DNA of 40,883 nucleotides. Origin: a virus. Positions 4,833 through 37,761 of this stretch are shown here, one piece after another (the first letter of the stretch is position 1; every line of letters starts with the position of its first letter). Location: UHGV virus genome UHGV-0848487; one strand, 5' to 3'. The position numbers and the translations under genes were made by a program. The notes below the pieces were generated by a model. It did no database searches. It was not told the DNA's origin and saw only the letters and a list, made by a program, of their open reading frames with translations.

Positions 4833-5096
4833 CTATTCCAGAATATTCCTCACGTAATCCTGCAACATGAACACTTTAAGTCTCAGTTGCCGTACACATT
4901 CTGCGTTCTGGACGTCAATAGCTAAATCCTCGTCCGCGTCGTTACTTGGCAGTGCCAGTTTGCACGGCGGCTGCATCATCGTCGTATCCGGGGATGGAAT
5001 TGGCGTTTGCGACGGCGCGGGACTTGAGTTGCACGCGCTCAGGGTCAAAAGTGCACACGCTGCGGCCAGGCGTTTTAATGTACTTAACGACTTCAC
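4833..5096 (-). CDS. Rz1: o-spanin (Rz1-like outer membrane lipoprotein)
   Basis: GTG start inside Rz in another frame; signal peptide with lipobox LSAC (MKSLSTLKRLAAACALLTLSAC); Pro-rich mature region; overlaps and extends beyond Rz 3' end. Confidence 0.7.
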   Translation of the reverse strand: MKSLSTLKRLAAACALLTLSACNSSPAPSQTPIPSPDTTMMQPPCKLALPSNDADEDLAIDVQNAECVRQLRLKVFMLQDYVRNILE

Positions 5097-5328
5097 GGGT
5101 GATTACCTCTGATTTCGTCTTGCCTTCGTTATCAGCGGCGGCGGCCTTCGATTCATCCTGCTGCTGCCGTTGTGTTTTCTTAGCTAACTCAGCCTGTGCT
5201 TTCTGCTGTTGCTGCGAAACGAGATTCTCCCGGCCTCCGTTCCAGCCGCTGCGATACTGGTAGATGCCGTGTGCGTAAGCCAGGATGATGAAACATGCCC
5301 CCGCTACGACAGTTGCTTTAAGATTCAT
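4942..5328 (-). CDS. Rz: i-spanin (Rz-like)
   Basis: 128 aa; N-terminal transmembrane segment, Gln/Ala/Lys-rich coiled-coil, overlapping lipoprotein gene in alternate frame; AAAGGGGAAAC RBS. Confidence 0.7.
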   Translation of the reverse strand: MNLKATVVAGACFIILAYAHGIYQYRSGWNGGRENLVSQQQQKAQAELAKKTQRQQQDESKAAAADNEGKTKSEVITREVVKYIKTPGRSVCTFDPERVQLKSRAVANANSIPGYDDDAAAVQTGTAK

Positions 5329-11286: not shown

Positions 11287-11469
11287 TCACCCCACTATCT
11301 CATCACCAAGCCACGCCGTTTCTCGTATATCGTCGACCACACAGGCGGCGTGCTCACGGCTAATTGCAAAAATGTAGAAACTAAACTTCTTCCCGTCGGC
11401 GTCGATATGGTTAACCGAGTAGGGTTTCCACAGGACACCATCAATTACTACTGGTTTAGGCGACTCCAT
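11287..11469 (-). CDS. hypothetical protein (60 aa)
   Basis: ORF track; part of tightly packed early operon. Confidence 0.35.
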   Translation of the reverse strand: MESPKPVVIDGVLWKPYSVNHIDADGKKFSFYIFAISREHAACVVDDIRETAWLGDEIVG

Positions 11470-11713
11470 ACGCTTTACCGCATTTTAAGCATGTGACTCG
11501 ATGCACCCCATCAACTAAATGCAGGCGGTAATCATGCTCGCAGGCGTTCATCTTTTCCTCTTCTCCTCTCAACAACATGAGAAGAACCTTAAATGCGGCT
11601 AACTGGTACTCACCGTTAATTGACAGTTGCCCGCCTAACGTCTGTTTCTCCGACTCAAGCACCAGAATACGGCGCTCGAGCGATGCGATTGTGATTTTAG
11701 GCATTGGTGTCAC
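11456..11713 (-). CDS. hypothetical coiled-coil / zinc-ribbon protein (85 aa)
   Basis: N-terminal heptad-like region, C-terminal CEHDY...CLKCGK Cys pairs. Confidence 0.4.
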   Translation of the reverse strand: MTPMPKITIASLERRILVLESEKQTLGGQLSINGEYQLAAFKVLLMLLRGEEEKMNACEHDYRLHLVDGVHRVTCLKCGKAYGVA

Positions 11714-12529: not shown

Positions 12530-13033
12530 TCATTTAACTGCCCTCCCGATAGCTTCAGCCTCTCGCCACGGTTTACCGTCGAACAGCGCCAGACGTCCGG
12601 CAACACGTCGACGTAGACCAAGCACAGGCTCGAGTTTACCTGTTTTCGGGTTGCGCTGGTTAATAAACTGACTCATCTTGTGCCGTAAGGTAGGGATGTC
12701 ACCCTGCCGTAGTGCCTTACCGGTTCCGGTATTAGCTGCGATAACACCAGTTCCTGCGTTGAACACCAGGTCAACAACAGCATCAAACTGAGCCTGGGTA
12801 AGTGACGGATGTGCCACCTCGTCGACCGCTTTCACCGCCCACTGCATATCGCGGTTCAGTAACAGCAGCCCCTGGCCCTCAGTAATCTTCTGTCCTTCGT
12901 ACACATCCGGCCCGGTATGGCCCCAGCCGATAGTCCAGTATTTTTCGTTCTTTGTTGCTTTGTATGCAGTTCCGCGGAACCCTTCGAACGCTGCGGTAAA
13001 ATGCGATCCATTATCTGAAATGTTTCGAGACAC
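12530..13033 (-). CDS. endolysin, glycoside hydrolase family 24 (T4/P22-type lysozyme)
   Basis: Motifs FEGFRGTAY ... TIGWGHTG ... LTQAQFDAVVDLVFNAG match phage lysozyme catalytic Glu/Asp/Thr region and helical core. Confidence 0.9.
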   Translation of the reverse strand: MSRNISDNGSHFTAAFEGFRGTAYKATKNEKYWTIGWGHTGPDVYEGQKITEGQGLLLLNRDMQWAVKAVDEVAHPSLTQAQFDAVVDLVFNAGTGVIAANTGTGKALRQGDIPTLRHKMSQFINQRNPKTGKLEPVLGLRRRVAGRLALFDGKPWREAEAIGRAVK

Positions 13034-13283
13034 GCTTGTGCCCTCCGTACGATAGCCACGCCTGACGAATCTGACGCAGCGCGACTAATGTGATTAATGT
13101 CTCGGGCAGCGTTGGCGACATGCTGCCCTGTAACAGGTGGATACTCCCGGCGGCGCAGACGATAGCGGTCAGGATATAGAGCACCCGACCGAATAATCCG
13201 TCATCAACGCTGGGGTGGTATACATTAAACAGCGATGTGCCCCCGATTGCCAGCATACCGCCGAACCAGAATAGCTCATTCAT
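13011..13283 (-). CDS. membrane protein, holin/antiholin-like
   Basis: 90 aa with two hydrophobic segments, between holin and endolysin. Confidence 0.5.
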   Translation of the reverse strand: MNELFWFGGMLAIGGTSLFNVYHPSVDDGLFGRVLYILTAIVCAAGSIHLLQGSMSPTLPETLITLVALRQIRQAWLSYGGHKRVSKHFR

Positions 13284-13584
13284 CCGGGCCTCCTCGACGT
13301 GAGATGTATTCTCCGGCGACGATACCAGAGAGACGGGAATAGATAGGCATCCAGAGAATGGCGATGATGAATCCGAGGCCAGCTATCTCGCGCTCGCCGG
13401 TAATACCGAACCATTGGGCAGCGAGAGGTGCACCAAATACAGCGCAGGTGAAGCCGGTTGCGATAAAGCAGAAGCCGTCGATAGGGCCGGAAATAACGGA
13501 CTTATGTTGTCGTAGTCCGATAACCCCTCCGGCTAGTGCGGCAGCGAGAAGCCACCCCGTCACTGTTTCAGTAAATTTATCCAA
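13276..13584 (-). CDS. holin (putative, multi-TMD)
   Basis: 102 aa with three hydrophobic helices and charged C-terminus; TTG start preceded by GGAGGA; first gene of lysis cassette. Confidence 0.55.
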   Translation of the reverse strand: MDKFTETVTGWLLAAALAGGVIGLRQHKSVISGPIDGFCFIATGFTCAVFGAPLAAQWFGITGEREIAGLGFIIAILWMPIYSRLSGIVAGEYISRRGGPDE

Positions 13585-13659: not shown

Positions 13660-13962
13660 TTATTTATGTCTCCAGATGTATTGTCGTCTCTGCGGCTTCG
13701 TCGGAATATCATTGTATCCCAGCGATTTCCAGTAATTAAATAACCGGTTAGCGATAGCTGCGCGTTCCTTTGTTTTAAACTCACCGAGATTCACGGCCTT
13801 CCCGTTCTGGAACCCACAGGCGCGGACAGCCTTGCGTCTGGCCTGAATCTCTGGGTACAGCGCGTTACGGCGGCGCTTGTATATCTGTGTTTTAGCTCTC
13901 GGTGACAGCGGCGCAAGGCCGCTTCGTTTCAGGATGCCAGGCTCATAGGTCGAGAATCTCAC
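13660..13962 (-). CDS. basic hypothetical protein (possible nucleic-acid binding)
   Basis: 100 aa, Arg/Lys-rich; directly upstream of lysis cassette. Confidence 0.35.
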   Translation of the reverse strand: MRFSTYEPGILKRSGLAPLSPRAKTQIYKRRRNALYPEIQARRKAVRACGFQNGKAVNLGEFKTKERAAIANRLFNYWKSLGYNDIPTKPQRRQYIWRHK

Positions 13963-14122
13963 GCGCTAATTCATCCGTCTTCCAGTCGCACGGGCTGTTT
14001 AACACCTGCTTAGCGAACCCTCGAAGTTTGCGCTCCAGCTCCACGTAATCTTCGTAGCGGACAAAATTACCTTCCAGGGCCTGAAACATATCGCCGTGGT
14101 CGTTTTCATATCTATGTACCAT
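13943..14122 (-). CDS. hypothetical protein (59 aa)
   Basis: Track ORF 13943..14167; preferred ATG 14122 overlapping upstream stop (TGATG). Confidence 0.3.
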   Translation of the reverse strand: MVHRYENDHGDMFQALEGNFVRYEDYVELERKLRGFAKQVLNSPCDWKTDELAREILDL

Positions 14123-14301
14123 CACTCCACCCCTTCCACACGTGTAATTGACCCGCAGTTCGCGCACTCGACATAATCCGGGAACTGGTCTTTGTATTTC
14201 TGCAACTCGGCTTCGAGTTTCACGTAAGCGCTATATAAGACCCAGTGTCCTTCATCATACGGGGCGACAAAACCGCCTTGTAATAAATATCTCTGTACCA
14301 T
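14122..14301 (-). CDS. hypothetical CxxC protein (59 aa)
   Basis: ATG 14299-14301 after AGGGGAAG; contains ECANCG motif; under track cutoff. Confidence 0.35.
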   Translation of the reverse strand: MVQRYLLQGGFVAPYDEGHWVLYSAYVKLEAELQKYKDQFPDYVECANCGSITRVEGVE

Positions 14302-14303
14302 AA

Positions 14304-14507
14304 TTACTTCCCCTGTTTACCAATGCGTTTAGGTGAGCAGATAGCGCGTATCTCTGAATCGTTAGGCTTGTCGCCCTGAAACAGAAAGTGCGCGTTCTCT
14401 GCGGCGCGTGCCGCGGACTGGCACGCCTCCATCGAATAAAACGTTTCTGATGCCGCTAGTTGCATCTGGCCCGCCGACAGTACCCAGATAAATAAGATGC
14501 TGGTCAT
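14304..14507 (-). CDS. small secreted/periplasmic protein (signal peptide), hypothetical
   Basis: Preferred ATG 14507 (MTSILFIWVLSAGQMQLAAS...) overlapping upstream stop; hydrophobic N-terminus then about 45 aa with two Cys. Confidence 0.4.
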   Translation of the reverse strand: MTSILFIWVLSAGQMQLAASETFYSMEACQSAARAAENAHFLFQGDKPNDSEIRAICSPKRIGKQGK

Positions 14508-15052
14508 CAGAAGTATTCCCCACACGTTTTACATACTTTCGTACCGAACGGCGCGGAGCCATCTGTTATTACATAATAGAAACTGTGTTTGCACTCCCGT
14601 GTACAGGCTGTTGGCTCATACTCAAGTCCGCCCCACTCACGCTTGCCGCATTCGCAGCAAAACCGGCTACCGGGCACGTTGTCCTTGTGGCCTTCGGCAA
14701 TAAACAATCCTGGAGCGATAATCCAATTGTGGTCACATTCCTGCGTATCTTCTTTTCGGCAACCAGATTGCTCCGAACCGTACGCACCTTTGCGGATAAG
14801 TTTGTATGCCTCCACGTCACCAGTAGCCTCAACCAATGCCAGATGCAACTCCTTAACTTGCCCTGTCAGGTGCGATATGTGCTCAGATTTCTTAATGTTG
14901 TCTTCCCGCAACTCCTTAATCTGCGCCGACGCATCACGTAACTGATTCTTAAGTGACTGCACCTCATGCGCCAGGTCTTCGCTCCGGCTGTTATTTACCT
15001 GCTGCCGTAGCTGGTCGATCAGGTACTCGAATATTTCGTTTTTGTTACTCAT
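14507..15052 (-). CDS. coiled-coil plus Cys-rich zinc-ribbon-like protein, hypothetical
   Basis: Preferred start MSNKNEIFEYL; N-terminal heptad region; C-terminal CDHNW...CCECGK...CTRECK...CKTCGEYF. Confidence 0.45.
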   Translation of the reverse strand: MSNKNEIFEYLIDQLRQQVNNSRSEDLAHEVQSLKNQLRDASAQIKELREDNIKKSEHISHLTGQVKELHLALVEATGDVEAYKLIRKGAYGSEQSGCRKEDTQECDHNWIIAPGLFIAEGHKDNVPGSRFCCECGKREWGGLEYEPTACTRECKHSFYYVITDGSAPFGTKVCKTCGEYF

Positions 15053-15212
15053 CAGCTTCACCCCTTTTCTCATCCACCCCGACTAGCAGCGATTTAGTGT
15101 CGCCGCCACACACCGAAGTGCTACTAATTATTTCGTAAGCGTCTACCAGTTCGCCTAAAGTCCAGCTACCGTACCAGCCCACCTCTGTCTCTCCTCTCGC
15201 TTGTGTAAATGA

Positions 15213-15241
15213 ATAGTAGCCTATTCTATCTTAGTGTGCAA
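15213..15241 (-). promoter_or_regulatory. sigma70-like promoter TTGCAC-N17-TACTAT (minus strand) overlapping GAATAG palindrome
   Basis: Minus strand TTGCACactaagatagaataggcTACTATtcattta; near-identical to promoters at 16507..16535 and 37733..37761. Confidence 0.5.
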
Positions 15242-16506: not shown

Positions 16507-16535
16507 ATAGTATCCTATTATGTTGGGGCGTGCAA
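16507..16535 (-). promoter_or_regulatory. sigma70-like promoter TTGCAC-N17-TACTAT (minus strand) overlapping GAATAG palindrome
   Basis: Minus strand TTGCACgccccaacataataggaTACTATtcactta, about 25 nt upstream of the 16472 gene. Confidence 0.5.
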
Positions 16536-16802: not shown

Positions 16803-16956
16803 AAGTACCCGAGACTTAAGAATGATGTTTCTAAGTAATTCTGAATTAAGGTCCTTCGATACATTGATTTTACAGCTACATTTTATTTTGTCAATAGGTT
16901 GTGTTTGGCTATTGTAGGTGTTATAGTTGTTTCACTTGATAAAGAGGGCACGTAAA

Positions 16957-17136
16957 ATGACACAGAAAGAAGTAGCAGACTTAATCGGAGTTTCTCCTAT
17001 GACGCTTAATCGCTGGCTGCGGTCGGGTAAGTTCCCTGAGTGTTGCCGGGTTATTAACGGCTACCGTCAGCCGGGTACGTTTGACCGCGCTACTGTGGAG
17101 GCGTGGATTAAGGAGAACGTAAAAGATGCTAACTAA
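16957..17136 (+). CDS. AlpA-like HTH transcriptional regulator
   Basis: Preferred ATG 16957 after AGAGGG; sequence EVADLIGVSPMTLNRWLRSGKFPE ... TVEAWIKEN matches AlpA/excisionase-like family pattern. Confidence 0.65.
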   Translation: MTQKEVADLIGVSPMTLNRWLRSGKFPECCRVINGYRQPGTFDRATVEAWIKENVKDAN

Positions 17137-37732: not shown

Positions 37733-37761
37733 TTGCACACCCCAATATAATAGGGTACTAT
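37733..37761 (+). promoter_or_regulatory. sigma70-like promoter TTGCAC-N17-TACTAT driving plus-strand accessory island
   Basis: TTGCACaccccaatataatagggTACTATtcactta; near-identical to the minus-strand early promoters at 15213..15241 and 16507..16535. Confidence 0.55.

Follow-up and report, generated by a model that had tools for sequence, protein, structure and literature searches.

What does a pair of overlapping small phage genes do when one of them changes its domains from relative to relative and the other stays constant? This question is raised by positions 14,304 to 15,052 of UHGV virus genome UHGV-0848487, a stretch of 40,883 nucleotides that was analysed in full and is called the window below. 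An earlier reading made from the DNA letters and their translations without database searches (the sequence-only reading) had described here a gene for a cysteine-rich coiled-coil protein followed by a gene for a small secreted protein, with host takeover or envelope-directed exclusion as candidate functions. Both open reading frames (ORFs) proved to be real, one of 181 amino acids (aa) at 14507..15052 and one of 67 aa at 14304..14507, both on the minus strand, and they are annotated in relatives as well (e.g., TE3_057 and TE3_058). The proposed overlap is also there: the TGA of the first gene and the ATG of the second have base 14507 in common (TGATG). As detailed below, the locus forms the head of an operon conserved in Guernseyvirinae, in which a promoter with a palindromic operator is followed by a shared leader, variable accessory genes and a constant core gene. 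The product of the 181-aa gene is modular, with a ca. 90-aa heptad stalk, a junction peptide, PEQSGCRKEDTQ, and a C-terminal array of C-x-H...C-x-x-C units.

The window is an essentially complete genome of a Kagunavirus (subfamily Guernseyvirinae). These are small virulent siphoviruses that infect E. coli. The 1.3 kb around the gene pair are 97% identical to phages fTaEco03, fKuEco01 and K1ind2/3, and over the first 25 kb of the window the identity to phage P AB-2017, ULINTec2 and further phages is 90-93%. The correct start of the 181-aa gene is the ATG at 15052 and not the ATG at 15073, since its homologs start with MSNKNE and a purine-rich Shine-Dalgarno sequence lies upstream.

Cassette Exchange at the 181-aa Gene

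A search of 5.8 billion proteins with the 181-aa protein retrieved 1329 homologous clusters of 106-276 aa, and the long-contig matches were on phage-sized contigs of 40-45 kb. The homologs have in common the N-terminus MSNKNEVFEYLIDQLRQQV, a coiled coil, the junction peptide EQSGCRKEDTQ and a variable C-terminal array; their coil takes optional in-frame cassettes of 21 aa and ca. 50 aa. Putative zinc modules were counted with a regular expression in the best 120 cluster representatives, and 66 IMG/VR loci served as an independent sample. Each of the 120 representatives has between 0 and 4 modules, and together they show at least 23 types of module and at least 51 architectures, that of the window being type 0 followed by type 1. 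When the zinc modules alone were used in a word-based search, all long-contig matches were again on contigs of 40-45 kb, the size of Guernseyvirinae genomes, and the rest were short fragments. In addition, beta-rich cassettes of ca. 50-60 aa without zinc ligands ("...W.W...DIV.YRV") replace or precede the zinc modules in some loci. Such a cassette is present in BASEL phages Bas71, Bas75 and Bas76 (L074, L075 and L073, respectively), and in SETP7 (L003, 2352-2504) it is a separate ORF. Hence, the cassette repertoire is not confined to zinc knuckles.

A tblastn comparison found the 67-aa gene in 475 phage records, which include Kagunavirus, Jerseyvirus, Cornellvirus and Klebsiella-infecting Guernseyvirinae, and the 181-aa gene in 241. 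The latter is therefore missing from about half of the subfamily, and six loci of Jerseyvirus have the 67-aa gene directly behind the promoter and leader. Elsewhere, the module block is replaced between flanks that are 92-98% identical. Judged by this distribution, the 67-aa gene is a core gene of the whole subfamily and the 181-aa gene a dispensable, cassette-swapping accessory gene.

We mapped breakpoints by comparing the window with 63 independent IMG/VR loci. In 42 of the 63 the first base of the 67-aa gene is also the first base of a block of homology (46 if a leeway of 2 nucleotides is allowed), and homology is continuous across this junction in only seven. Blocks begin at the junction peptide (q524-530) in 12 loci, and both edges of the 21-aa coil cassette (q393 and q445) are recurrent breaks, in 25 and 15 loci, respectively. 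Further recurrent breaks fall at the starts of the 181-aa gene and of the 45-aa ORF upstream of it (orf45), with q528, q248 and q117 among the recurrent break positions. The pattern is one of cassette exchange between conserved anchors. The ratio of nonsynonymous to synonymous substitution rates (dN/dS) of the 181-aa gene was not informative, there being too few differences among relatives of the same architecture.

An 85-aa ORF at 11456..11713 on the minus strand (PHROG 9023) has a coil-like N-terminus and one C-x-H...C-x-x-C module (CEHDYRLHLVDGVHRVTCLKCG), and CEHDYRL modules like the one it carries form the last cassette of 181-aa family members in L009, L013, L019 and L025, which suggests that modules may have been exchanged between the two loci. 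Paralogy of the two proteins was considered and rejected, their similarity being at the motif level only (E = 0.14). Metagenomic relatives (P0171, P0184 and P0006) include in-frame deletion fusions that join the coiled-coil N-terminus with the 67-aa protein's C-terminal half, the 67-aa N-terminus with the downstream 59-aa gene and an orf45-like N-terminus with the coil. They may be genuine recombinants formed at this hotspot or artefacts of assembly.

Architecture of the 181-aa Protein

A coiled coil at the N-terminus had been proposed from the sequence, and both a heptad test and AlphaFold helices bear it out. The heptad register is unbroken from aa 24 to aa 77, with 81% of the a/d positions hydrophobic versus 16% elsewhere, a result that one of 2000 shuffles equals. 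AlphaFold predicts helices at aa 2-21, 24-77 and 80-88, with block-mean predicted local distance difference test (pLDDT) values of 66-88 (71-88 for the helix of aa 24-77), and the protein has many sub-threshold coiled-coil matches in Pfam. The optional 21-aa cassette lies in this stalk at about aa 49-65 and is lacking in many relatives (e.g., P0004, P0014 and P0019).

The C-terminus is indeed rich in cysteines, but the four CxxC pairs ascribed to it are just two CxxC groupings, the others being Cx7C and Cx3C. All nine cysteines (98, 106, 132, 133, 135, 150, 154, 174 and 177) are in the last 88 residues. The unit that is conserved across homologs is C-x-H-x-[WFY]-(4-34 residues)-C-x-x-C-G, and the window protein has two, at aa 106-136 and aa 154-178. 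In the homolog alignment C106, C132, C135 and G136 of the first module are invariant, and H108 and W110 are conserved in at least 90%; C174, C177 and G178 of the second are near-invariant among homologs. Two ligand pairs per unit are conserved across homologs except in some type-1 modules of relatives, where W-P-Y or G-P-Y stands in for C-x-H. On motif grounds only, the modules can be described as putative CHCC-type mini zinc ribbons. No match to a curated zinc-ribbon family was found for the 181-aa protein in Pfam, NCBIfam or PDB, and a scan of 52 homologs returned only sub-threshold matches to YqzL (5 members) and DUF7577 (4 members).

The stalk is separated from the modules by the junction peptide EQSGCRKEDTQ (aa 94-104), which is close to invariant in two homolog alignments (A1 and A3). 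It is kept as a peptide with varying third-codon positions in 31 distinct DNA contexts, and it also ends unrelated upstream ORFs, e.g., "...HENHGMPEQAGVRKEDTQL" followed by the stop codon. In three loci of divergent Guernseyvirinae that have no modules (L064, L069 and L070), an unrelated ORF ("...GDAVEARK.AE...FHENHG") terminates in PEQAGVRKEDTQL, with its stop overlapping the 67-aa start; the RKED codons of these loci (AAAGAGGA) sit at Shine-Dalgarno distance from the 67-aa ATG.

Conservation and Fold of the 67-aa Protein

The 67-aa family forms 49 clusters at 90% identity, and all matches are at least 67% identical. A profile search of 1.84 billion representatives produced about 10 real clusters at 50% identity, all of them from the same phage family or its fragments and fusions. 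Since pairwise dN/dS is 0.19 with a proportion of synonymous differences (pS) of 0.38 (44 distinct alleles), constraint on the gene acts at the protein level. C29, C57 and the TFY and AEN motifs show little or no variation, the most distant orthologs included. The gene is almost always coupled translationally to the ORF before it: that ORF runs into the 67-aa ATG, with an overlap of 4 nucleotides (ATGA) or 1 (TGATG), in 57 of 66 loci, irrespective of the C-terminus that it encodes. AlphaFold models the protein as beta-beta-alpha-beta with a mean pLDDT of 74.9, the N-terminal hairpin reaching ca. 82.

The sequence-only reading had taken this protein to carry a signal peptide. Its N-terminus is hydrophobic, with a run of 7-9 residues (core ILFIWVL, followed by small residues). 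Neither the window protein nor any ortholog has a lysine or arginine ahead of this run, compared with 1-3 in the spanins of the same genome; that is, the positively charged n-region typical of Sec/signal peptidase I substrates is absent. The window protein has candidate cleavage sites after SAG (before Q) and after LAA (before S), which vary in position and form across orthologs. The best 19-residue Kyte-Doolittle average (KD19) is 1.18-1.37 in four orthologs and 1.37 in the window protein. In the same genome the o-spanin signal peptide scores 1.34, and the i-spanin and the holins score 1.72-1.89. The 67-aa values stay below the ca. 1.6 that marks a transmembrane anchor, and Gln or Pro break the hydrophobic segment after 8-10 residues. 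A lipobox of the Cor/Llp type is absent too; of the ORFs in the window, the o-spanin at 4833..5096 alone has a convincing one. The N-terminus is, moreover, the most conserved part of the protein (dN/dS of 0.09 for the first 20 codons versus 0.25 for the rest) and is modelled as part of the fold; several orthologs have Pro-Pro at positions 17-18. The label "secreted" is doubtful, since the N-terminus is strongly constrained, has no basic n-region and is modelled as a beta hairpin. Secretion of the classical kind is improbable for this protein; as to its topology, we give export and a cytoplasmic location roughly equal chances.

A role as a spanin or disruptin substitute was rejected: an i-spanin/o-spanin pair is present at 4833..5328, and the protein is not cationic (+7/-6). 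With a lysis set that is complete, spanin pair included, the 67-aa protein is not needed for this purpose.

Family, Structure and Literature Searches

Searches of Pfam, PHROGs, NCBIfam and PADLOC with both proteins and their neighbours produced only coiled-coil noise and PHROGs of unknown function, and PDB sequence searches with the 67-aa profile and with the C-terminal 88 aa of the 181-aa protein had no match. A Foldseek search of PDB with the 67-aa model gave nothing at E < 0.5, only generic folds, and a BFVD fold search returned uncharacterised small phage proteins only. T7 Gp2 and T4 Dmd, small inhibitor proteins of phages with a sheet of three strands and one helix, are of the same size and secondary-structure class as the 67-aa model, and both are among the weak Foldseek matches. 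In these databases no homology of the pair to a characterised housekeeping phage protein was found; such homology is what the sequence-only reading had named as telling against it, and on this point that reading stands. The two genes are catalogued as PHROGs 6094 and 3766, both of unknown function, and hundreds of genomes list them as "hypothetical protein"; the coiled coil accounts for stray names at or beside the locus, among them "tolA-binding protein", "cell division protein" and "lactocepin". In the literature searched, no description was found of the domain-level cassette exchange, of the junction peptide or of the constant partner gene.

Promoter and Palindrome

A dedicated promoter had been proposed at 15213-15241, and it turned out to be conserved in about 40 related loci, with changes only in the spacer. 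Since TTGCAC-17-TACTAT agrees with the consensus at just 7 of 12 positions, it is not called by a consensus scan. The same arrangement, TTGCAC-N17-TACTAT, is found again at 16535..16507 (minus) and 37733..37761 (plus), which makes three near-identical elements in the window. A perfect palindrome overlaps the -10 hexamer. At up to two mismatches, GAATAG-N4-CTATTC has 10 sites in the window versus 1.24 expected, and 0 of 100 shuffles reach 10. A second promoter class, TTGACA-N17-TATAGT (at about 20043, 22437 and 25844), has the palindrome in its spacer and precedes genes for a PD-(D/E)XK nuclease, an SSB-like protein and an SNF2 helicase.

The window palindrome agrees with the consensus of a motif (tgAATAGTa-ccTATTat-T) that PHIRE found seven times in phage fBC-Eco01 and that was named "phage promoter" (PMC9825357); the homologous site there is marked "phage promoter7". 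As no RNA polymerase gene was found among the window proteins examined, the palindrome resembles an operator that is placed on host-type promoters and would be bound by a phage regulator. An HTH_17 protein encoded at 16927..17136 is a candidate binder. This type of operator is common to the DNA-metabolism operons, which makes early or middle expression of the operon of the gene pair plausible. The paper on the K1B4 transcriptome, the sole published one for a Kagunavirus, names only one of that phage's four early genes.

Gene Layout and Neighbouring Features

The coordinates of the features are collected in Table 1. The gene pair belongs to a run of small minus-strand genes that begins at a divergent promoter region near 16.9 kb and goes on through two holins, an endolysin and more small genes to the packaging and head genes. 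Rfam matches and tRNAs were not found in the window.

Table 1. Coordinates of the operon head, its parts and related elements in the window.
Feature	Position	Strand	Remarks
Sigma-70-like promoter, TTGCAC (15241-15236), 17-nucleotide spacer, TACTAT (15218-15213)	15213..15241	minus	Conserved in relatives
Perfect palindrome GAATAGgctaCTATTC, putative operator	15211..15226		Overlaps -10 hexamer
16-nucleotide palindrome sites	455, 5572, 12233, 15211, 16505, 20008, 20052, 22446, 25853, 37748		Motif scan of window
45-aa ORF (orf45), first of operon	15045..15182	minus	GTG start; TE3_056 and fBCEco01_062 in relatives
181-aa coiled-coil and putative zinc-module gene	14507..15052	minus	PHROG 6094; accessory
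Coiled-coil stalk, aa 2-88	14789..15049	minus	AlphaFold helices and heptad test
Junction peptide EQSGCRKEDTQ, aa 94-104	14741..14773	minus	Near-invariant in alignments
Putative zinc module 1 (type 0), aa 106-136, CDHNWIIAPGLFIAEGHKDNVPGSRFCCECG	14645..14737	minus	Putative ligands C106, H108, C132, C135
Putative zinc module 2 (type 1), aa 154-178, CKHSFYYVITDGSAPFGTKVCKTCG	14519..14593	minus	Putative ligands C154, H156, C174, C177
67-aa gene, core	14304..14507	minus	PHROG 3766; hydrophobic aa 4-12; invariant Cys29 and Cys57
Two tandem paralogous small genes	13943..14301 (14122..14301 and 13943..14122, the latter listed as 14167)	minus	BLASTP E = 3e-6
Two holins	13276..13584 and 13011..13283	minus	Same run as gene pair, downstream
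Endolysin	12530..13033	minus	Same run as gene pair, downstream

Between the promoter and the 181-aa gene lies orf45, which the sequence-only reading had not mentioned. It has a weak match to PHROG 35344 and falls in a variable block of the mosaic, and at its 3' end it shares 8 nucleotides with the 181-aa gene. The start codon (15180..15182) is GTG here and ATG at the equivalent position in close relatives; the GTG may reduce translation of orf45 and, by coupling, that of the downstream genes.

The tandem paralogs that follow the 67-aa gene stand in a variable block 3' of it, carry the pattern "MVxRY...Y.DY..LE" and match PHROGs 29624 and 37174. The first (59 aa), which has a CxxC at its C-terminus, gives a weak Lar-like match (PHROG 3592, E = 0.006; Pfam, E = 0.12), and the second probably starts at ATG 14122, in another TGATG overlap, rather than at GTG 14167. 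In Klebsiella phage 37P2 the domain of these paralogs is fused to a zinc module.

The two-component spanin is encoded on the minus strand amid head genes, ca. 7 kb from the holin/endolysin cassette. The i-spanin (4942..5328) has an N-terminal transmembrane segment, and the overlapping o-spanin lipoprotein gene encodes the lipobox LLTLSAC and a Pro-rich region. In fTaEco03 and fBC-Eco01 no spanin is annotated beside the lysis cassettes, the head regions of both phages being outside the comparison.

Discussion

The locus qualifies as a coiled coil, as a bearer of a zinc-ribbon-like motif (by sequence only) and as a phage accessory region. Its closest counterparts in organisation are the accessory regions of other phages (Silas et al., bioRxiv 10.1101/2023.04.06.535777), where variable, dispensable genes also lie between conserved elements, here a promoter with its leader and a core gene, and are exchanged among near-identical phages; such regions between core genes are enriched in fast-evolving anti-defence genes. 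Unlike them, the present locus, which is known from sequence alone, varies also within the gene, by domain cassettes of 20-35 aa. Enki, a stand-alone zinc-ribbon protein of 52 aa encoded by a phage, is a proven inhibitor of more than one defence and acts against both AbiH and a retron (bioRxiv 10.1101/2024.06.14.598830). With Enki and Lar (PF14354) the 181-aa protein shares small Cys-rich, zinc-ribbon-like units encoded among small phage accessory genes; however, its pattern is C-x-H...C-x-x-C and not twice CxxC, its modules are arrayed on a coiled coil, and neither it nor the 67-aa protein matched the Lar profile (PF14354/PHROG 3592).

Polymorphic toxins (CdiA-CT, Rhs) offer another parallel, with a conserved N-terminus, a short demarcation motif (VENN in their case), variable C-terminal cassettes and breakpoints at the motif and the next gene. 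Here, however, the cassettes are zinc knuckles of 20-35 aa and not toxin domains, and no secretion apparatus is involved. Nor is there a covarying downstream immunity gene, the 67-aa gene being constant while the modules vary. The likeness to polymorphic toxins extends to the mode of evolution only.

The explanation that we favour, while still giving it somewhat less than an even chance, is that the 181-aa protein acts as a multivalent binder in counter-defence or host takeover and is encoded next to a constant partner or anchor gene. The stalk would oligomerise the protein and present several copies of interchangeable, zinc-stabilised mini-domains, which would be the specificity determinants of the binder; the protein would neutralise variable host factors early or midway in infection. 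The junction peptide and the conserved downstream gene would be the anchors for homologous exchange of cassettes, and the 67-aa protein would have its own constant function, whether as a small cytoplasmic oligomeric beta-beta-alpha-beta protein or, about as likely, as a membrane- or periplasm-directed one. Counter-defence or host takeover is put forward as the most likely role because the locus behaves like the accessory regions rich in anti-defence genes and because of the Enki precedent. The "host takeover" of the sequence-only reading likewise fits the accessory, hypervariable nature of the zinc-module gene.

Several points weigh against this explanation. Database searches revealed no functional homology of any kind for either protein, and mosaicism by itself is no proof of an arms-race function. 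The zinc region is modelled by AlphaFold at a block-mean pLDDT of only 32-64 (module 1 below 50), with just short strands, and zinc may not be obligatory, since C-x-H gives way to W-P-Y or G-P-Y in part of the type-1 modules. The BASEL paper reports Kagunaviruses to be highly sensitive to restriction-modification and variably sensitive to Old, so that there is no obvious strong counter-defence phenotype. A link of the gene to the BASEL phenotype that sets Bas70-73 apart from Bas74-76 with respect to the K-12 cryptic prophages was considered and rejected: Bas71, which plates on K-12, and Bas75 and Bas76, which are blocked by those prophages, all have a near-identical 181-aa gene. Given the restriction-modification sensitivity, a BASEL phenotype that the gene does not track and the zinc ligands lost from some modules, our confidence in the functional part of the explanation is low.

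Alternatively, and in our estimate rather unlikely, the zinc protein would be a host-takeover factor and the 67-aa protein would be exported by Sec and cleaved to leave a periplasmic domain of ca. 47 aa with a C29-C57 disulfide, acting on the envelope, e.g., in superinfection exclusion or lysis timing. The ILFIWVL core followed by small residues (SAG, LAA), a KD19 close to that of the o-spanin, two invariant cysteines outside the hydrophobic segment and a position upstream of the holin and endolysin genes on the same strand are all in its favour, and the Pro-Pro of several orthologs suits a c-region better than the modelled beta strand 2. Against these stand the lack of a basic residue before the hydrophobic run in every ortholog, in contrast to the spanins, of a lipobox and of any single conserved cleavage site; an N-terminus that is more constrained than the would-be mature part and is modelled with a pLDDT of ca. 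82 as a hairpin; and a lysis set (two holins, endolysin, i-spanin and o-spanin) that is already complete. Somewhat less probable again is a nucleic-acid regulator in which the 181-aa protein dimerises through its coil, reads DNA or RNA with its zinc modules, as Mu Com or DksA/TraR might suggest, and tunes phage or host transcription or translation. Zinc ribbons often bind nucleic acids, and the operon is under a repeated promoter/operator. DksA/TraR has a coiled coil and a C4 zinc finger and binds in the secondary channel of RNA polymerase; the superficial likeness lies in the order of coil and C-terminal zinc element and in the small, phage- or plasmid-borne nature of the proteins. The coil of the 181-aa protein, however, is modelled as a long single helix set and not as an acidic-tipped hairpin, and its modules vary in number and type. 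The 25 best of 33 Pfam matches at E <= 1 consist entirely of coiled-coil noise and include no nucleic-acid-binding family, zf-dskA_traR (PF01258) being absent as well, and zf-dskA_traR does not appear in the homolog scan either; absence from half of the subfamily and free swapping of modules among near-identical phages would be unexpected for a regulator of conserved phage promoters.

We consider it improbable that the two genes form a functional pair of the toxin/modulator kind, in which a variable zinc-module sensor or regulator, made in a fixed ratio, controls a constant membrane-active or toxic 67-aa effector. This would account for the stop/start overlap that is kept whatever the upstream C-terminus and for the strongly hydrophobic N-terminus of the 67-aa protein, and one may speculate that Cys98 of the junction peptide and the two invariant 67-aa cysteines could form a common metal site. 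Yet the 67-aa gene has no upstream partner in the six Jerseyvirus loci and unrelated upstream ORFs in others, and it does not covary with module type, remaining at least 84% identical while the modules change. Very improbable, finally, is neutral debris, i.e., a variable gene that is largely what a recombinational hotspot leaves between two anchors, with no selected function of its own. The frequent absence of the 181-aa locus, truncation at the junction peptide (P0090), fusions (P0006 and P0171) and split versions (SETP7 and 37P2) would be expected in that case, but not an open reading frame maintained across all 1329 clusters, nor precise in-frame module boundaries, nor a coiled-coil N-terminus, junction peptide and zinc ligands that are conserved with synonymous variation.

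The multivalent binder can also be put in a bolder form, which we regard as unlikely to hold in full: a "plug-and-play" display in which the stalk and the demarcation peptide carry swapped zinc mini-binders of 20-35 aa, each neutralising a different factor of host defence or of rival phages, with the 67-aa gene as 3' recombination anchor and obligate partner. Such a system would be a counter-defence analogue of the polymorphic toxins.

Phages of Kagunavirus and Jerseyvirus have been isolated widely and serve as candidates for therapy or biocontrol against uropathogenic and K1 E. coli and Salmonella. If the array sets which host defences a phage overcomes, cassette content would predict host range and offer a handle for engineering, and the array would also supply natural binding domains of very small size. 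Even if both genes are ordinary, the locus marks a defined site for insertions, dispensable and flanked by a conserved promoter and a core gene, which is useful for payload engineering. The junction-peptide and anchor design would exemplify exchange at the level of domains, not genes, in a phage accessory gene. The 67-aa protein, kept in nearly every member of the subfamily and without known relatives, is a good target in the search for a new core function in small siphoviruses.

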